Part shown: positions 1 through 46,766 of the stretch, in pieces
Position numbering within the stretch: position 1 is the first letter of the stretch
How the letters are laid out: the number at the start of each line of letters is the position of its first letter
Source: Octopus vulgaris
Taxonomy: Eukaryota
NCBI GenBank assembly: GCA_951406725.2
Contig: OX597821.1
Span: forward strand, 95,542,001-95,606,000
DNA length: 64,000 nucleotides
Direction of reading: 5' to 3'
Notes under the pieces: model-generated
What the model saw: only the letters and a program-made list of their open reading frames with translations
What the model was told of the DNA's origin: nothing
Databases searched by the model: none
Position numbers and translations under genes: made by a program

Positions 1-1198
1 TAGAAAGCCTGCCAGATCAGATTGGAGGCTGGTGCAGCCATCTGGTTTGCCAGTCCTCAGTCAAATTGTCCAACCCATGCCAGCATGGAAAGCGGATGTT
101 AAACGATGATGAAGATGATGCTGATACCAAGCCATCAGGCTAGCCTGAGCATATGTACTGCTTCATCCCAGTTATCGAAAATGCATGCGCTTCTTCCAGT
201 CCTCCAATGAAACCCTCCTTTTCCATATTTTTACTCACAAAAACCTCAAGCAATCATAACACAAACTGGAAAATGCAGTTGAAAAGTATAACTAGCTTGC
301 AAACAAGAAAGCTATAGTTTTATGATCATGCATATCACTGTTACCAGGCAAAATTTGAAATATTACACATCAAATTATGTGACAGGACATAACACCATAC
401 AAAAACTCACACCCAACCTTCTCATGTATATCCGTCATCCTTCTTCATTCTAGGAGTGACCTCAATTGTTCTCTATATTACTCAGTTTATGGGTCTTTTA
501 TTGGATTAAGAAATTTTGAATAAGTTAGTTGTGAAACCACCAATTTTACTACTACAAGTGTTTGATTACATTGCCTAGTGTATAGTACTGTTCCTGTTCA
601 TATAAGCCTATAATAACAGTGACATACTAATGCCAGAAAGTGAGCGATATGCATAGTTAGTAGCTGCTACAGTTTCACATACACCATTTGAATCGTGTAT
701 GTATATTGTATTATTGCACATATTGTATACTTTATTGACAGTTCCTTAATGTCAAACACTGTACAAACACTTAGTGGAAGAACCTGAATAGTGTAATTGA
801 TAGTTGCCACCTGACAGTAACCAGGTGTGTCTTATGGTTATCTGTGTATTTCACTGCCCATGTGCACGAGGAGAAGAATTTGAATATATTATATATATTT
901 GAATGATTTAAACAAACAACCATTTCATTAAATATACAGATATGGGGGTGGCTGAAGTGTCTAAAATTTTAAAAAATTCAATAAAACAGTTTATTTTTCT
1001 GATAAACAATTTTTCCGTAGTTTACTTTTACTCGATAAGACAGTGCCTGCAGATGAGCAATGATGCCCAAAATTGTCACCAGAATATGCTCGACATCTTG
1101 CAAGTCCTAGAACAGTGGTTCCAACAGGTCACTTTTTAGTGACCTTAAATGAAGCCAGTACTTGCCTACAGGTCAACTGTCCTAAACATGACACTCAC

Positions 1199-1264
1199 CT
1201 CCAAATCAGATTCACTTTTCTTTTCTGTTTTCTGACCTTGTTTGTCTTTCTGTTTCTCTTGATC
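1199..1264 (-). CDS. ARFGEF1: Duplicated 66-nt exon, copy D: DQEKQKDKQGQKTEKKSESDLE
   Basis: ttgtttgccag|GAT...GAG|gtgagt. Open frame, phase 0-0. Confidence 0.68.
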
Positions 1265-2068
1265 CTGGCAAACAATATACACATATAAATATATCTTACC
1301 ATCTACTACCTTTATTGCTTTCCTTTACTCTCTCACATTACTCTTTTCTAACACTCACTATTGACAATCATCCCGCGCTCTCAGCCAACCCTCTTGTGTC
1401 TCTCCTATTAATCTCTCTTCCCTCGTCATGCCACCTTAGTAAATTCCAAACCAAACATAATCGTTGTGGTGTGCCCAAGAGGATTGGATGTTAAATATTT
1501 GCAGTTAAATCTCACTTTTTGCTATTTCTATTCATCAGTTTCATAACCAACAACAGTCATAAGGCTGTCTATCACATTCTCATTCGCTTTTCTATTATAT
1601 ATATCTTCCATCATGCATATGCACATGTATGCAAAGCCTGCAGGCAAGATTTTATGAAGAAACTATCAGTTGCCTTTGGACACCAGTCTCTCCTCTCCAC
1701 AATATTAATGCTTATCTAAAAGAGAAACTTCCAACATGAGCCAATACATTTAGATATCAATGAAATCACAAGCGTTGCTGTCAGAACAGACTTCAAAATA
1801 CTGTGCCTAACAATCTAACAGTTCAATTGATCAACAGCCTTGGGCTTCTCTCTTTTCTCTTTTATACTTGTTTCAGTAATTTGACTGCGGCCATGCTGGA
1901 GCACCGCCTTTAATTGAGCAACTTGACCCCGGGACTTATTCTTTTTGTAAGCCCAGTACTTATTCTATTGGTCTCTTTTGTCGAACTGCTAAGTAACGGG
2001 GACATAAACACACCAGCATCGGTTGTCAATCAAGCAATGCTAGGGGGGCAAACACAGACACACAAACA

Positions 2069-2117
<49 letters not shown>

Positions 2118-3098
2118 TGTTTATGTCCCCATTACTTAGCGGTTCAGCAAAAGAGTCCAATAGAATAAGTACTGGGCTTACAAAAAGAATAAGTCCCGGG
2201 GTCGAGTTGCTTGATTAAAGGCGGTGCTCCAGCATGGCCGCAGTCAAATTATGATGGGCTTCTTTCAGTTTCCATCTACCAAATCCACTCACAAGGCTTT
2301 GGTCGGCCCGAGGCTATAGTAGAAAACACTTGCCCAAGGTGCCACGCAGTGGGACTGAACCCGGAACCATGTGGTTGGTAAACAAGCTACTTACCACACA
2401 GCCACTCCTGCGCCATTTTTTTAATGGAGATGAGAAGCAAAGTTTACCTTGGTGTGACATAAATTCAGTCATAAGAAACACTGTAATTCTAACTCTGCCA
2501 ATTCATCTTTTGCATTATTCTCACTCTTACCACTCTGGTCCTTTTCTATTAGTCTCTCTTTCTCTCTCTCTCTCTCATGTCACAATCATGATTATGTTGC
2601 TTTTATTCAATATCCTTGCCAATAACCATCATGTAGCTATCACACATCCTCTCATTTCTTTCACTGGATAGTGCAGGAAAGAAAGGAATAAACAGGGACA
2701 ATGCAGGGATAAGGTAACTATCTTTAGTCTTGCTGAGGGGCAAAGCTATCTTTCTATTGCTGATAAATTGGAGACAACATTCAATTGAGAGAAATCTTTA
2801 GCTGCCAGAAACAAAAAACAAAAACATCTCTGGTACTAGAGATATAAAATGCATCAAGGACAGCCAGTAAGGTGGTTGATCAAAGGAAGGGTGTCCAGCT
2901 GTAGAAATTATGACAAAAGAATTCAACATACAAATCATGTAGTCTACAAGTCAAATAGGCTATAGCTACAAAATAAGAACTGACTCAGAGTGGAATAGCA
3001 TTCAACCCATGCCAGCATGCAAAAGCAGACATAATATTATGATCATCACACACTAACACACATATGTATGTATGCACACACACACACACATATATATA

Positions 3099-3257
3099 TA
3101 TAAATTAAAGAAGAACCACCTTTTATCAATTCAACAATGAAATAACAATGATATAATTAAATTATACCATATAGAAAAAATTTAATTTTTTTCTATATGG
3201 TATAATTTAATTATATCATTGTTGAATTGATAAAAGGTGGTTCTTCTCTAATTTATA
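3099..3257. repeat. ~155-bp near-perfect palindrome/hairpin
   Basis: GAAGAACCACCTTTTATCAATTCAACAATGA...ATTATACCATATAGAAAAAA, short loop, TTTTTTCTATATGGTATAAT...TTGAATTGATAAAAGGTGGTTCTTC. Confidence 0.9.
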
Positions 3258-3586
3258 TACATATATTATATATTGTGAAATTTGATTTAGTATTACTAAA
3301 TTGAACTTTTCCCTGTAAGTTTGGAAAAAATATTCCCTAATATTATTATTATATCATCATCATCATCATATACATACATATCATCATCATCATTGTTTAA
3401 CATCCGTTTTCCACGCTAGCATGGGTTGGACGGTTCGACCGGGGTCTGGGAAGCCAGGGGCTGCACCAGGCTCCAGTCTGATCTGGCAGTGTTTCTACAG
3501 CTGGATGCCCTTCCTAACGCCATATATATATATATATATATGTGTGTATATATATATATACATACACACACACACACACACATAGC

Positions 3587-3621
<35 letters not shown>

Positions 3622-4451
3622 CAGACATACAAATACACATAAATAACTACATACTAATGTTGAGCTGGTCCACTAAGATACTAGGAAATCTCCTAGTGAA
3701 CCTTAAGTTGAGCCCCCTTTTTTTTCACGATAGAATATTTGATGGTATATGTATATATGTTTGCTTTAAAAAAAAAAGGATTTCTCAATCTTTCATTCTT
3801 ACTGCTTCATCATTTTTAATTATATTCCATGTTTTTTATAACCGATTATTTATTGTCGTTATGCGATAATTAATTTTAAATTCATTTTAGATCAGTTTTT
3901 GAACCTGTATTTCAAGCTGCAACACACAACCTTGAATTTTAAATTCTATTTCACTTAATTCAAAATTAAGCAACATTTTAAGAAAAAACAAACAAGAACT
4001 AAACTACATGGGAAGGCAAGCTGATAATAGAAGAAATATTTACAAGTTATGCTTCTAATTTCATGAATAATCCAATATTAAATAATCTGTCTAGTAGTTG
4101 AATTTAACAATGTAAAGTTACTTATTCAAGTAGCTTAATACTGTCATTTAAATCTTTGAGATTAGTTACATGCTAGTGTCAAAAAATGAAAGATATGTAC
4201 AGTATAGTGGGAATTATGTACCCTCTGCTTTTGCACATACTCTTTTACTTGTTTCAGTCATTTGAATGCGGCCATGCTGGAGCACCGCCTTTAATCGAGC
4301 AAATCGACCCCGGGACTTATTCTTTTGTAAGCCCAGTACTTATTCTATCGGTCTGTTTTGGCCGAACCGCTAAGTGACGGGGACGTAAACACACCAGCAT
4401 CGGTTGTCAAGCAATGCTAGGGGGACAAACACAGACACACAAACACACACA

Positions 4452-4495
<44 letters not shown>

Positions 4496-5117
4496 TAGAT
4501 AGATATATATACATATATACGACAGGCTTCTTTCAGTTTCCGTCTACCAAATCCACTCACAAGGCTTTGGTCGGCTCGAGGCTACAGTAGAAGACACTTG
4601 CCCAAGGTGCCACGCAGTGGGACTGAACCCGGAACCATGTGGTTGGTAAGCAAGCTACTTACCACAGAGCCACTCCTGTGCCATAGTGTATATTTTATTG
4701 GTGGCTTCTCAACTGGAGCATTCTGCAATCTGATAGAAGGCCTGAATGATATAATCCATGCTGGTAGTTGTCAACTAGTCAAGCCATATGTGTCTGTATC
4801 TGTGTGTATTATTTGTGTATTTCACTGCCCAAGTGAAATTTGAATATATTATATATATTTATTTAAATGTTTTAACTGTCTCCTTCATTGAATATAAAAA
4901 TATGAGGGTAACTGATATGCTTCCATGCTAGCATGGGTTGGACGGTTCGACCGGGGATCTGGGAAGCCAGAAGGCTGCACCAGGCTCCAGTCTTATCTGG
5001 CAATGTTTCTACAGCTGGATGCCCTTCCTAACGATATGTGTGTGTGTGTGTATGAAAATGGTCCTGAATTAAGTCAGTGCTTTCCTACAGGACAACTATC
5101 CTAAACATGACACTCAC

Positions 5118-5183
5118 CTCCAAATCAGATTTGTTTTTCTTTTCTGTTTTCTGAACCTGTTTATCTTTTTGTTTCTCTTGATC
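5118..5183 (-). CDS. ARFGEF1: Duplicated 66-nt exon, copy C: DQEKQKDKQVQKTEKKNKSDLE
   Basis: ttgtttgccag|GAT...GAG|gtgagt. Differs from copy A at 5 synonymous and 3 non-synonymous codons. Confidence 0.68.
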
Positions 5184-5559
5184 CTGGCAAACAATATATA
5201 CATGCATATATATAGCTTATTATCATCTATCTATATTGCTGTTCATCACTTTTTTCACATTACTGTTTCTCTCTCTCTCTCTGGCTATCAGTATCACACA
5301 AAAGACAATTTCTCTCTCTCTTACCATTCTGCTTCTCTTATAATACTCTCTTCTATCACCATTGTATTGGTTCTCTCCCAACATTCTATCTGATACACTT
5401 CTGTCATTTTCCATCTATTCAACCTCCTTGCCAATACCTGTCATATACTTGTAATCACATTATTCACTCGCTATCACCTACTCACTTCTATAACCCTCTT
5501 GGTCTGACTATCCTCATCCAATAATCTGTGAGAGAAAGGAACAAAAGGTCCCTGTAATA

Positions 5560-6243
5560 TCAGGTCATCCCATAAGTTCTATCTGATTTTTATTTTTTTT
5601 CAAAAATTGAAAGAAATTTAATAGTATTTTAGAATGTCTAATGGAATTAAAAATTATTTTTATGTATCTGTGAACATTTAAACTAATTAAATATCATTTT
5701 ACAGAATAATAGAATTAAAATTTCTTGAAAACCCTTTCTAACATAGAAGTATCCAAAGAGCATTTAAGGCACATAATGCTTTATGAGTACGAAAAAAGGA
5801 AACTGCACCTGAAGTAACTTGAAACATACACTCAGTTTATGGGAAAGAATGCTTGAATGAAAGAACTTGCAGAAGATGGTTTGCAAAATTCAGAAGTGGA
5901 GATGTCAGCCTTGAAGATGAAGATTGAACTTGAGGCATTACTTGAAGAAAATCCTGCATTATCAGTTGAAGAATTGGCAATAAAGCTTAGTTCAAACCAT
6001 ACAACTGTTCATCATCATCTTCAACAACTTGGAAAGGTTCCTAAACTTGGAAAATGGGTGCCTCATGAATTGTCCGAAAGCAACCGCAAATACCGAGTTG
6101 ACATCTGCTCTTCTCTCCATTCTTGCGAACTCATTTCACCCTTTTTGGATAGACTTGTGACTGGTGACGAAAAATGGATCTTCTATCGAAATGTTAAACA
6201 TCATAAACAGTGGCTTGGTAAAAGTGAAAAAGCTCAACCACAC
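5560..6243 (+). mobile_element. Mariner (Tc1/mariner) left end with degenerate, 3'-truncated transposase
   Basis: TA|TCAGGTCATCCCATAAG terminal sequence. Frameshifted N-terminus from about 5743, then the mariner motifs WVPHEL and RLVTGDEKW (ORF 5857-6252). Stops before the second catalytic Asp. Confidence 0.9.
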
Positions 6244-6265
6244 CTGTCCTAAACATGACACTCAC

Positions 6266-6325
6266 CTCCAAATCAGATTCACTTTTCTTTCCTGCTTTCT
6301 GTACTTGCTTATCTTTCTGTTGATC
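6266..6325 (-). CDS. ARFGEF1: Duplicated 60-nt exon, copy B: DQQKDKQVQKAGKKSESDLE
   Basis: ttgtttgctag|GAT...GAG|gtgagt. Carries an in-frame 6-nt deletion relative to the other copies. Confidence 0.62.
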
Positions 6326-7920
6326 CTAGCAAACAATATACGTATACATTTATATATACCTTACCATCTACTATCTTTATTGCTATACCTCAAACTCTCT
6401 CTCTACTTGTCAGCAATTATCTACCTCCATTATTCCATCTTCTATTATATCCACTTTGACATGTTACTTCTATTCAACCTCCTGACCAACAAACCCCATA
6501 TACCTGTAATCACAATCAATCACTATTCTAATGCTCTCTCCTCTATCACCTTTGTTCTCTTCTGTAACTTTTTCTTTCATCACAATCTCACTCAGCCTCA
6601 TCCAATTATGTGGAGAAAGTAAAGAACCAATGAATGGAGACAATGCTTGATGGAAAGTATTCTCATTTGTCTTGTGGGGGAATTGACTTCTTTGATGCTG
6701 ATCAGTGAATGAATGCAGACAGCATAAGGTGTTGAGGACTCATTAGTCTTAAGGACATGTCATAATAAATGCCACAAGAGCATTTAATAAAGATGCTTGG
6801 CATTGGTATGGCATCCAAATGTAAAGTGAGGGTAGACATGATCTTCAACCTCTCTATGTATTTATATACATACATATATATGTATGAATATAAGCATGTG
6901 TAATGTGTATGTCTGTTATCTATGTATGATCAGCGATGTTTCAATATCCAGTTTTCCATGCTTTCATAGGTCAAACATGGTTCTTTGAGGTAAATTTTTT
7001 TAAGGCTGGATGCCCTTCCAGTCACCAACCCTCAAGCAAGATAGTACTTCTCCATGACCAGACATGTTATCATGGAAGATTGGAAATGAACGACACTCAT
7101 TTACAAATATCACATGACATCAGGACAGGGAAGCACAAACATATATATACACACACACATACACAATTGTACACAGATAACTACATAGCAGTTCCAGTGT
7201 GGATAAAGGGAAATCTGGTGGCTCTCTTCAAGTTAGGCATTTCTTTGATGGTAGAATATTTGTAAATATATATGATTGCTCTGGAAAAGAATTATTTCTC
7301 AGTTTTGTCTTTTTTACTGAAGAATATATCTTATTTTTAATTATCGTATTTGTGCCAGCAGCACGTAAAAAGTGCCCATTACACTCTCAGAGTGGTTGGC
7401 ATTTGGAAGGACATCCAGCTGTAGAAACCTTGCCAGATCAGATTGGGGCCTGGTGCAGCCTCCTGGTTTTCCGGTCCTTAGTCAAACCATGCCAGCATGG
7501 AAAGCAGACGTTAAATGATGATGATTATTATTATTTCTTCATGATTTAATTGTTGTTCTATGATAATTAAACTAAAATTTATTTCAGTCTGGTTCTGTAA
7601 AGCAAGCTGCAACATTTAAGTTACTTTATAGAGTGTATAATATTTAAATTGTATACACTTCAATTCAAAAATAAGCAAAAGAAACAAAAATATAGATAAG
7701 GCAGGCCAATCACTATAATAAAACATGCAAATTATGGTAATATTTTCTTGAGTAATGTAATATATAATCTGTCCAGTTGATGAATTAAACAGTTTCAAGC
7801 TATAAAGAAGCTACTCAATGGTTTATAGCTGTCATGGAAGCTAATAAGGTCAACTACATTCTAGTACATGAGAATATGAGAGCTACATATAGTAGTAAGT
7901 GGCTGATAGAACAACATGTA

Positions 7921-8239
7921 TTGGGTCATCCCATAAATAATGCAGTTTTTTCAATTGCATGAACTCAAAGTTGGAGGTGGACAGGGTAAACTACCTGCAT
8001 CAACTTGCTATCAAAGCAGGTAGTAATTTTACCTTGTCCTTATTCTTAGCGCAAGTTTTGAAAAGTGCAGTTCAATTTTAACAGTTATTTTTTTCAAAGC
8101 TATGATGGAAGTGACAAAGGAGTATATTCAGCATATTTTGCTTTATGAATTCAATAAAGGCAACAACACAATGGAAAGTGTGAGGAATATTAATGCAGTA
8201 TATGGGGATAGGTCAACAGTGGTTCCAGAAATTCCGAGC
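7921..8239 (+). mobile_element. Second mariner left-end fragment
   Basis: TA|TTGGGTCATCCCATAA terminus related to the one at 5560. MEVTKEYIQHILLYEFNKGNN...INAVYGD and QQWFQKFR are mariner HTH-region motifs. Confidence 0.8.
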
Positions 8240-8835
8240 TTACAGATACGCTTTATCCACCTGCCCACAGGTGTTCCATCGCTTCTGTGCCTTTTCCTAT
8301 TCTATTGATACGAAAATGGCCCTTGCTTCTCAAAGTTGATTAGGTTCCTGTCACTTCAATTCAAGCATTCTACTCATCTTTCTTTAGCTCATTATCCTTG
8401 TAGTGTCCAACAGTCTGGTCTCACACTATTCACGATGCACATTCCGCCCTTCCCAAATCATCAGCCCTCAGGAATTCCCACCCTGCTCGTTATCATTCAT
8501 GCAATTGTTAACTTAGAAGAGCTCATGGGGAACATTCATAGCATCAATCCCACTGGTCTAAGAGGGCCTGCAAAGTCCATATGCACTGCCACTTCCTCCA
8601 GACCCAGCAAGTGCAAAAACCAAAACAAGAAAAAAAAGCTGAAGCATTTAAAATTAAATATTCAATAAAAATGGCTTATTTTCTCAATAAACAATCTTTG
8701 ACTACATTAGAATCATGCTAGATTTCTTCCCCGTATGACAGCTGTGGTCCTGACAGGATACTTCTATAAATGGTAGGGATCCTAAATTAAACCAGTACCT
8801 TCCAGCAGGTCAATTGTCCTAAACATGACACTCAC

Positions 8836-8901
8836 CTCCAAATCAGATTCACTTTTCCTTTCCGTTTTCTGGACTTGCTTATCTTTCTGTTTCTCTTGAT
8901 C
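8836..8901 (-). CDS. ARFGEF1: Duplicated 66-nt exon, copy A: DQEKQKDKQVQKTERKSESDLE
   Basis: ttgtttgccag|GAT...TTGGAG|gtgagtgtc. Phase 0-0, open frame, compatible with the phase-0 donor at 17985. Confidence 0.72.
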
Positions 8902-17984: not shown

Positions 17985-18164
17985 AGCTTGGGATTCCATT
18001 CTGGAGAAGATAACATTAAGCATCTGAGTGAGCGTGGCCTTGGCTGTTGTCTGGTTGACTAGGTTCTTGCTGGCCAAGTAGATGTTGTAACAGGTACGTA
18101 CTGCTTGTAGAACAGTCCCTTCATGGATCTCACAGTTGTTTGATGTCACTACAGTTAGCAAAGC
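17985..18164 (-). CDS. ARFGEF1: BIG1/BIG2-like coding exon (probable exon 5): [60 protein letters not shown]
   Basis: Acceptor ctcatttag|GCT, donor GCT|gtgagt, 180 nt, phase 0-0. Matches the BIG1 motif [37 protein letters not shown]. Confidence 0.95.
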
Positions 18165-25248: not shown

Positions 25249-25395
25249 CTTAATAATCTGCAGTTGGACGCCCTCATCAGTCTGCGGCCCGTGGAAACAA
25301 ACACATATTGTCTCAACAATACGGTCAATAAGCCTTTTGCCAGGTGTAGAAGACTCTGGAGTATTGCCAGTCAGGTGACCATAGGCAATGAGTTT
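25249..25395 (-). CDS. ARFGEF1: BIG1/BIG2-like coding exon (probable exon 4): [49 protein letters not shown]
   Basis: Acceptor ttcctccaccag|AAA, donor AAG|gtaact, 147 nt, phase 0-0. Very close to BIG1 [10 protein letters not shown]...[14 protein letters not shown]. Confidence 0.95.
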
Positions 25396-27318: not shown

Positions 27319-27463
27319 CTGTAAACAGTCCAAAGCAGTGTTGACAATGCGGTTGCATTTTGACTGACATGCAAGTTCAAAGGGCAAGAAATACTTGTCA
27401 GTTTCAACAAATTCGGATGCAGATTTCGGAAGGGGCAAAGCTGAGGAAGCTTTTGTTCCTTGT
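27319..27463 (-). CDS. ARFGEF1: BIG1/BIG2-like Arf-GEF coding exon (probable exon 3, DCB region): [48 protein letters not shown]
   Basis: Acceptor tttgttttccattccag|A, donor CAG|gtgagt, 145 nt. [18 protein letters not shown]...LDCLQ is a recognisable BIG1/BIG2/Sec71 motif. Confidence 0.93.
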
Positions 27464-34020: not shown

Positions 34021-35355
34021 ATCATCATCATCATCATTTAATGTCCGTTTTACATGCTGGTATGGGTTGGACGATTTGACTGGGGACTGGCGAACCAAAT
34101 GGCTGCACCAGGCTCCAATCTGATCTGGCAGAGTTTCTACAGCTTCACCACCTCATCTCAGGTCTTCTTGGGTCTACCTCTTCCACAGGTTCCCTCAACC
34201 GCTAGGATGTGGCACTTTTTCACACAGCTATCCTCATCCATTCTCGCCACATGACCATACCAGCACTCTCTTGCACACCACATCTGTTGCTTCTTAGGTC
34301 CAACTTTTCTCTCAAGGTACTTACACTCTGTTGAGTATGCAGACTAACATTACACATCCAGTGGAGCATACTGACTTCATTCCTTGCAAACTTACGCATG
34401 TCCTCAGCAGTCATGGCCCATGTTTCACTGCCATGTAGCATGGCTGTTCGTACACGTGTCATACAGTCTATCTTTTACTCTGCGTGAGAGGCCCTTTGTT
34501 ACCAGCAGAGGTAAGAGCTCTCTGAACTTTGCCCAGGCCATTCTTATTCTAGCAGCTACATTTTCAGTGCACCCACCCCCGCTACTGACTTGGTCACCTA
34601 GGTAATGGAAGCTATCAACTACTCTGCACATTTTCAGTGTTTATTGCCCCTGAGCATCTGTCATATACAAAAACTAACTTCCCAATAAGCCTTCCTTTTT
34701 ATATTGCTCCACCTCTTAATATGTCTATAGCTTATACTGAGTAAATCTTATAGAGTTTCTACCTACGCTTTTTCTACAGATAGAGCAGGGCCATCTACCT
34801 GAAGAGATTTGTGGTTTGTCTGCCTTCCTACTTATTAGGACTTTGGTTTTAGCTAGGTTGACTCTAAGGCTCTTTGATTCTAATCCTTGCTTCCACACCT
34901 GAAACTTCTCTTGTTCTGATAGTGACTCAGCAATTAGAGCAAGGTCGTCAGCATAGAGGAGCTTCCAGGGGCATCCTGTCTTGAATTCCTCTGTTATTGC
35001 CTGAAGGACTATGATAAATAGGAGGGCACTGAGGACTGAACCTTGGTGGACCCCTACCGTTACCTGGAATTCTTCACTGTACTTGTTGCCAACCCCCACC
35101 TTACTGACAGCATCCCTGTACATGGCTTGCACAGCTCTTACTAACCATTCATCTTCATCTATCCCTGGTTTCCTAATTGACCACCAGATAAGGGATCGAG
35201 GGACCCCATCAAAAGCTTTCTCCATGTCAATGAAAGCCAGGTACAGAGGTTTACCTTTGGCTAGGTATTTCTCTTGCAGCTGTCTAACCAGAAATATAGC
35301 ACCAGTGGTGCTTTTCCCTGGTACGAACCAAAACTGCATCTCATCTAAACTGATT
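34021..35355 (-). mobile_element. RTE-clade LINE, 5'-truncated, degenerate reverse transcriptase, internally deleted 3' UTR, (GAT)n tail
   Basis: RT motifs QFxFVPGKSTTxAIF, AFIDMEKAFD, GVHQGSVLS and LLYADDL (ORF 34725-35339). Downstream are FHYLGD, MLHGSETW and GRGRPKKT, joined to the common 3' end. Confidence 0.93.
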
Positions 35356-35615
35356 CTCAGTCATTGGGAATAATATTTTTTATTATAAATGATCTTGACA
35401 TTCTTTTTACTTTACATAAAATATTCTTTACCATTCTACTGTCGTCCTACTGCCACTTATTTAAGGTATTATAAATTTTATAGGTAAAATATTTTTCCGC
35501 CAACGAATTATGATTTATAACATTGCTACTATGGGAAATTATTGCTCTGCTTCACAAGTTTTCAATTTACAAGTGGTCTCCAGGAACAAATCAACTTGTA
35601 TATCAAGGCATTACT

Positions 35616-46393: not shown

Positions 46394-46452
46394 TAATAAT
46401 AATAATAATGATAATAATAATAATAATGATAATAATAATGATGATAATAATA

Positions 46453-46543
<91 letters not shown>

Positions 46544-46766
46544 TAATGATAATAATAATAATGATAATAATAATAATGATAATAATAATAATAATGATAA
46601 TAATGATAATAATAATAATAATAATAATGATAATAATAATAATAATGATAATAATGATAATAATAATAATAATAATAATGATAATAATAATAATAATGAT
46701 AATAATGATAATAATAATAATAATAATGATAATAATAATAATAATGATAATAATGATAATAATAAT
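46394..46766. repeat. ~370-bp interrupted (AAT)n/(GAT) microsatellite
   Basis: Directly visible. It is the source of the poly-N and poly-I ORFs. Confidence 0.97.

Follow-up and report, generated by a model that had tools for sequence, protein, structure and literature searches.

Short, frame-preserving exons of low complexity, the number of which sets the length of a spacer, are familiar from the PEVK segment of titin and from tropoelastin, where such cassette exons are many, ancient, proline-rich and elastic. A second described group is the alternatively spliced repetitive units (ASRUs), which the ASPRING survey (bioRxiv 10.1101/2023.04.29.538821) reports in 1,039 human genes, e.g., those of Matrilin 2, nebulin and tau. 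A third is the Dscam-type cluster of invertebrates, in which several homologous internal exons arose by tandem duplication and each mRNA takes one of them (PMC8373072). Here we describe an array of six copies of one exon in the gene of a BIG1/BIG2 Arf guanine nucleotide exchange factor (GEF) of Octopus vulgaris. The array begins within, and runs past the left edge of, a window of 64,000 nucleotides (contig OX597821.1, positions 95,542,001 to 95,606,000).

Like the titin and tropoelastin cassettes the BIG1 exons are short and keep the frame, and their number sets spacer length; unlike those, they are six in number, charged, predicted to be helical and located in a trafficking enzyme. As in ASRUs, the repeats are each one exon, regular in length and highly identical, lie within a single gene and are individually included or skipped. 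The copies are 77–92% identical at the nucleotide level, above the 45% exon identity used for ASRUs, and in the orthologous genes the repeats are tied together by alternative splicing at the level of annotation. Judged by sequence and annotation the array is thus of the ASRU kind. It differs in its descent from one ancestral exon, the other retrieved proteins of the family having no repeat there, in being recent enough for the intron flanks to align, and in its position at the end of a structured Arf-GEF helix. The likeness to Dscam-type clusters lies in the tandem duplication of homologous internal exons, several per cluster, in an invertebrate, whereas the BIG1 copies add up within one model rather than being used one per mRNA (PMC8373072); docking/selector pairing was not detected, and the variants differ little in sequence. 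At 60–66 nt the copies exceed the 3–27 nt given for neural microexons in PMC7935315.

The exons encode part of the region that separates DCB from HUS. Galindo et al. (PMC4956616) describe two helices that protrude from the solenoid at this junction and are joined by a poorly conserved linker of ~100 residues. In fungal Sec7 a resolved mid-linker segment packs on the solenoid, flanked by unresolved stretches of 46 and 21 residues (PMC4764562), and deletion of the D-loop, which lies within this linker, raises Sec7 activity ~eightfold (PMC10927569). In human BIG1 a helix of residues 328–341 binds Dpy-30 (PMC2909266), and an RII-binding AKAP site of BIG2 lies at 284–301 (PMC3820590). The array falls in this same region, and the sections of these last four sources that were accessible describe neither repeat exons nor splicing control in the linker.

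Results

Six tandem copies of one BIG1 exon

The host gene is a BIG1/BIG2 Arf-GEF, as a preliminary description of the window had recognized. The encoded protein has the Pfam domains DCB, HUS, Sec7, HDS and BIG2_C in that order, the exons of the O. sinensis X1 model map in order on the minus strand from window position 27462 to -91270, and the DCB exon has a single match in the genome. Negative window coordinates are genome positions minus 95542000, and 150 kb were added to the left of the window for the search. The exon that closes the DCB domain (ALLTVV...RMESQA; 17985..18164, minus strand) is 100% identical to that of O. sinensis BIG1, and its phase-0 donor, GCT/gtgagt, feeds the array. The array sits within the 23 kb that separate this exon from the downstream shared exon DTKESSP..., also on the minus strand, which starts at window -4955 (genome 95536919-95537045).

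The four copies first reported, all on the minus strand, proved correct in position, peptide, acceptor, donor and splice-site integrity, as did the suspicion that more copies lie before position 1. Copy A (8901-8836) encodes DQEKQKDKQVQKTERKSESDLE, copy B (6325-6266) DQQKDKQVQKAGKKSESDLE, copy C (5183-5118) DQEKQKDKQVQKTEKKNKSDLE and copy D (1264-1199) DQEKQKDKQGQKTEKKSESDLE; A and C differ by 5 synonymous and 3 non-synonymous codons, as had been counted. The two further copies, likewise intact and on the minus strand, are E (window -954..-1019, genome 95540981-95541046; AQEKQKDKQILKIGKKSECDSE) and F (window -3771..-3836, genome 95538164-95538229; DQEKQKDKQIPKTEKKNESDLE). All six are in phase 0-0, lack stops and are bounded by AG and GT; each is 66 nt long except B, which at 60 nt carries the lone indel, an in-frame deletion of 6 nt. 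Proline is found only in F, and glycine in B, D and E. The introns between copies measure 1082–3853 nt, and the intron 3' of D (1..1198, minus strand) runs past the left edge of the window. With adjacent homologous exons of the same phase, each having its own splice sites and homologous flanks, the locus is a tandem exon duplication.

A DNA search of the whole genome gave six matches, all six candidates being scored, with E-values of 1e-87 to 1e-39 and all at the array locus, and the exact 22-mer that straddles the junction of exon and donor occurred six times in the 2.8 Gb genome, again always in the array, against no occurrence of the reversed control. These results exclude recurrence by chance as well as a dispersed repeat or transposon, the latter being an outcome that the preliminary description had said would count against it. 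The idea of a seventh copy, since lost, near 2100-2600 was rejected; the homology at 2555-3037 is better read as D's upstream flank stretched by insertions.

Two features of the copies deserve separate mention. Copy F looks mosaic: its codon 17 (AAC) and an upstream TGCATG are common to C, and its codon 10 (ATC) and longest flank homology are shared with E, whereas in O. sinensis residue 17 of the F peptide is S. Such a pattern might stem from unequal crossing-over or from conversion involving C, E and F. In copies A, B and D residues 17–22, SESDLE, give two S-x-x-D/E motifs, which we take to be of the CK2-type consensus, as does the SESEGE of the single-copy homologue; the number of these presumptive sites would scale with copy number.

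Isoform models combine the copies

Usage was read from automatic RefSeq models of relatives, namely the 15 listed of 42 cluster members (seven of O. sinensis, seven of O. bimaculoides and one of Argonauta); the species of six O. bimaculoides models was inferred, three of the six having shared substitutions. The listed O. sinensis models contain A (X6), A+B (X3), A+D (X2) or A+F (X1, X4, X5 and X8), and the four copies differ from their O. vulgaris counterparts by 0 (A), 1 (B), 0 (D) and 1 (F) residues. Those of O. bimaculoides contain no copy (X11), b2 (X10), A+b2 (X6), b2+b3 (X7) or A+b2+b3 (X1–X3). Copy A is therefore present in 7/7 O. sinensis and 4/7 O. bimaculoides models. Altogether, 11 of the 14 Octopus models hold two or three copies, two hold one and one holds none.

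The preliminary description had offered three readings of the array. Mutually exclusive use is rejected by the 11 models with two or three copies, and a constitutive repeat of ~86 residues is rejected because copy number in the listed models stops at three and is zero in one of them. The third reading, combinatorial cassettes that tune the length and charge of the linker, stood as to cassettes and length, both evident in the models of two species; for tuning of charge there was scant support, as every copy is close to neutral (5–7 K/R vs 5–7 D/E) and length is what changes. Taken together, sequence and models make it likely that the copies are additive cassettes, each chosen independently.

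Shorter protein fragments carrying the linker were also sought, with no match among 2402 candidates, and a search of 50% identity clusters returned only two repeat proteins, both unrelated.

Origin and age of the array

A single copy, differing from A at two residues, is present in the Argonauta model. A 15-member protein cluster ~89% identical to Octopus BIG1 has a single 22-residue homologue in all 12 members that span the junction (the other 3 of 15 do not span it). As named non-cephalopod molluscs and Lingula are 71–79% identical to Octopus BIG1, this cluster is likely, by its sequences, to represent other cephalopods. Among retrieved proteins of at least 300 residues that contain the junction, a tandem repeat was found there only in Octopus, bar one salmonid model with an SL-rich read-through.

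Since homology between the introns continues for over 1 kb beyond the exons, each duplicated unit was of kb size and brought its own splice signals along. A tree of the six copies was star-like (supports of 27–70), and hence we claim no order of duplication. O. bimaculoides and O. sinensis each have models with several copies, which places the array before their split, dated to ~34 million years ago in PMC10700109. The divergence between copies is about that between the Octopus and Argonauta linkers; judged from such comparisons the array may be older than that split and perhaps octopod-wide. The earlier term lineage-specific thus holds loosely, the lineage perhaps being as broad as the octopods.

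A donor-side intronic element is better conserved than the exons

The acceptors of the copies read ttgtttgc(c/t)ag and the donors gtgagtgtcatg. Acceptor scores were 2.5–6.1 vs a median of 9.6 for the gene's 34 other acceptors, placing them in the lowest third, and the donor score of 12.5 lies above the maximum (12.1) of its 34 other donors. Weak acceptors with a strong donor are a layout consistent with cassette exons.

All six copies are followed by a 20-nt intron element, gtgagtgtcatgtttaggac, found on the minus strand at 8816..8835 after A, 6246..6265 after B, 5098..5117 after C and 1179..1198 after D. At +7..+20 there is one change in 84 bases, the c to t at +20 after C. The probability of at most one change in these 84 bases is 1e-4 to 2e-5 at a divergence of 0.13–0.15 per copy, and the conservation points to selection on a putative splicing element. 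Mean pairwise identity among the copies is 97.6% (205/210) at +7..+20, 92.2% at -17..-1, 86.5% in the exon and 69.7% in the distal flanks (1504 aligned columns). Exon and flank divergence, a comparison proposed in the preliminary description, are therefore not equal. The flank value comes from local alignments, which were used because binned global alignments past ~50–100 nt were scarcely above the unrelated-intron control (~0.7).

In the coding sequence the copies have a synonymous divergence (pS) of 0.38 and a non-synonymous divergence (pN) of 0.09. The divergence at synonymous sites roughly equals that of the flanks and so speaks for purifying selection, not for wholesale gene conversion. 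Excluding the changes private to copy E, 8/16 unique changes are synonymous (P=0.018, omega 0.30); of E's own, 1.5/7 are synonymous and 5.5/7 non-synonymous, with omega ~1.1, and in coding terms E looks to be decaying. The strongest signal of selection in the array is the non-coding one at +7..+20, and selection on the array at this splice element is likely on the sequence evidence. In simulations with assumed indel rates, the probability that all six copies keep frame, AG and GT was 8e-5 to 2e-5 at 0.13–0.15 divergence per copy and 0.006 at 0.07.

A TGCATG, presumably an Rbfox motif, lies just upstream of the acceptors of C (-23) and F (-21). No fold was common to the copies in an analysis of local RNA structure around them: z was -2.31 for E and lay between -0.25 and -1.16 for the other five. 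In a search for docking/selector pairing the best duplexes of three conserved copy-D flank segments did not stand out from those of shuffled queries (8 per segment), although a weak or distant site could escape this search.

Beside copy B there is a broken transposase-like reading (LVTGDEKWIFY; plus strand, ~5600-6243), which we take to be mariner-like and which had no Pfam match. It starts ~24 nt downstream of B's donor and replaces B's flank; the +1..+20 element stays intact.

The copies continue the last DCB helix in structure predictions

We used AlphaFold models to place the encoded peptides. Residues 3–222 of the model superpose on residues 3–226 of the human BIG1 DCB crystal structure 5EE5 (Z 24.5, root-mean-square deviation (rmsd) 1.5 Å, 202 aligned residues), such that the first copy coincides, over its initial ~13 residues, with the end of DCB helix 8. 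The comparison with 5HAS gave Z 29.6 and rmsd 2.8 Å over 330 aligned residues. The array had been placed at the start of the DCB-HUS linker: it does directly follow RMESQA, but in the predicted model those first residues belong to the end of helix 8 rather than to the linker.

In O. bimaculoides X1 (residues 1–628) helix 8 is predicted to span 184–266, running through three copies with block values of 83–92 on the predicted local distance difference test (pLDDT). In the remainder of the linker a mid-linker helix, 330–347, was predicted with confidence and the rest was not. In an A+F model the helix spans 184–239 and ends three residues before the proline of F. The mid-linker helix, IAEAILNDILDKVT, is encoded by an exon at genome 95531560-95531649 (minus strand) and aligns with vertebrate helices of the IVQSIVEEMVNIIV type, the helix to which Dpy-30 binds in human BIG1. 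The spacing between RMESQA and this helix in the Octopus models is 57, 79, 99–101 or 123 residues when the cassettes are counted.

Other features of the BIG1 gene

An earlier DCB exon (KLIAYGH...LQIIK), mapped from O. sinensis BIG1, lies at 25249..25395 on the minus strand. Just past the mid-linker helix there is a second linker cassette of 108 nt in phase 1-1 (EQDKRPS...LSPVLG; window -15319..-15426, genome 95526574-95526681, minus strand), which O. sinensis X8 and the Argonauta model lack and which is variably present in the ~89%-identical cluster; an insert resembling it is variably present in scallop models. By its distribution among these sequences it is likely an old molluscan alternative exon. 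A 24-nt microexon, PADWLNTH (window -73781..-73804, minus strand; sites tgtttgtag/gtaagt), is optional in Octopus models and found also in the ~89%-identical cluster as PADWLNTN; as judged from these models, it is a conserved alternative microexon. A 15-nt segment (VSDSV) at an exon end near window -68007 is variably present in the two Octopus species and is likely due to an alternative donor. Teleost models (catfish BIG1 X1 and another) have an insert of 18 residues (LTNHKISWS...) at the RMENQA junction, which suggests that this junction independently gains alternative exons.

Within the introns are a (TAA)n-type microsatellite of ~370 nt (46394-46766) and reverse-transcriptase-like open stretches (LYADDLALI; 34428-35360, minus strand), which we presume to be a fragment of a long interspersed nuclear element. 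The C-D intron has inverted repeats at 3090-3266 (56-nt arms, 95% identity, 65-nt gap) and 1877-2251 (135-nt arms, 94%, 105-nt gap), possible double-stranded RNA or editing substrates.

Discussion

We consider it probable that the six in-frame copies of the BIG1 exon are included additively, with 0–3 per mRNA in the models of relatives and likely the same in O. vulgaris, each copy being predicted to lengthen helix 8 and the tether beyond it by 20–22 residues. In such a scheme kb-sized intron-exon-intron units would have been duplicated in tandem, so that the exon was copied together with its splicing signals, and the choice of each copy would then be independent of the rest, with A included as a rule and B–F less often. 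An alpha helix rises 1.5 Å per residue, and the proline-free copies would carry helix 8 out of the solenoid by ~3.3 nm each, whereas F would end it. The most speculative step is that the length of arm or tether may reposition the mid-linker helix (the AKAP/Dpy-30 site in human BIG1 and the autoinhibitory D-loop region in fungal Sec7) or partners of the protein, and so fine-tune Arf activation at the trans-Golgi. That the length of arm or tether has a selected tuning function in BIG1 regulation is advanced as a tentative proposal, one that we hold to be somewhat less probable than not. Its most elaborate form is quite unlikely: a ruler set by splicing, with about six helical turns per exon, capped by F, its copy number set by tissue through the 14-nt intronic element, which would position the autoinhibitory/AKAP helix or Golgi partners stepwise.

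Several observations weigh against additive, length-tuning use. Copies C and E occur in none of the 15 listed models, and the evidence for usage consists entirely of those RefSeq models, from a cluster that has 42 members. No listed O. sinensis model exceeds two copies, the number in the longest (X1); this also fits a rule of A plus at most one other, and low independent inclusion would look no different. The identity of copy A across species is weak evidence because the rest of the linker differs at just 3/132 residues. With weighting of transitions, the array as a whole shows modest constraint on its coding sequence (9.5/23 unique changes synonymous, P=0.07, omega 0.43). A stable single alpha helix (SAH) has an excess of attractive i+3/i+4 charge pairs, and in 7/7 linkers these were fewer than the repulsive pairs (P 0.80–0.93 vs shuffles). 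Lacking this SAH pattern, the long helix may be overcalled by AlphaFold, and a continuous helix beyond the folded core is seen in that prediction only. The glycines of B, D and E likewise speak against a rigid rod. In other animals 51–152 residues separate RMExQA from the mid-linker helix, by a regular-expression estimate that left some proteins unmatched. That range covers the 57–123 residues of Octopus, and the length may thus be tolerated rather than tuned. Lastly, the equation of the metazoan mid-linker helix with fungal D-loop helix 9 is a tentative inference.

Some of these points also serve a near-neutral account, in which A completes helix 8 as it did ancestrally and the other copies are frame-preserving passengers of low inclusion, slowly decaying in a linker that tolerates changes of length. 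The wide variation of linker length among animals, the neutral look of E's private changes (omega ~1.1), the absence of C and E from the listed models and, at kappa 2.6, the lack of significance of the whole-array omega (P=0.07) all agree with it, and as the copies were found by similarity, decayed ones would have been missed. It is at odds with the retention of frame, AG and GT in six of six copies, improbable in the simulations even at the lower divergence (0.006 at 0.07), with the +7..+20 element kept in all six, E included, and with multi-copy isoforms modelled in two species ~34 million years apart (PMC10700109). We regard this account as unlikely, though it is the rival that survives best.

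Under a Dscam-style alternative, A would be near-constitutive and the other five mutually exclusive, with zero or one taken. In 7/7 listed O. sinensis models A occurs by itself or joined by just one of B, D and F, as this alternative predicts, and since isoform numbers fall with length an unlisted three-copy O. sinensis model is unlikely. However, O. bimaculoides models combine b2 and b3, with and without A, and independent low inclusion would likewise make three-copy mRNAs rare. Nor is there an evident means of exclusion: introns of 1082–3853 nt are too long for steric exclusion, double inclusion preserves the frame so that decay would not clear it, and no docking/selector duplex of the copy-D flank segments rose above the shuffled queries. 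Exclusive use of the five is thus very unlikely.

Cephalopods edit their RNA heavily, and the copies, 77–92% identical with many A/G differences, could in principle have misled annotation, such that short reads with polymorphism or adenosine-to-inosine editing were assigned to the wrong copy and a single copy is really spliced. Such editing cannot make B's 6-nt deletion, D's GGT or F's ATC-CCG, a single-copy mRNA cannot yield a copy-to-copy junction, and the pattern recurs in two separately annotated species, so that we judge an artefact highly improbable. That all copies form one constitutive K/E/Q repeat (86 residues for four copies, 130 for six) is scarcely credible given the weak acceptors, the ceiling of three copies in the listed models and the jump from A to F in those of O. 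sinensis, even though every splice site is intact and in phase and tandem duplicated exons are, according to PMC8373072, mostly constitutive in general.

No description of the array was found in search listings of the open-access literature, although its isoforms are already implicit in RefSeq as automatic models. Additive use of the copies would provide a natural series of 0–3, possibly up to 6, copies in a region of the BIG1/Sec7 GEFs that is mostly unresolved in structures yet contains an autoinhibitory element in fungal Sec7 and a helix that anchors PKA/Dpy-30 in human BIG1, and the isoforms would allow a direct test of the importance of arm length for Arf activation. The +7..+20 segment is a candidate cephalopod splicing element, better conserved than the coding sequence that it follows. 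More broadly, the array would be a case in which exons, once duplicated, become additive cassettes and neither exclusive nor constitutive exons, with the copies at varied stages of retention and decay.

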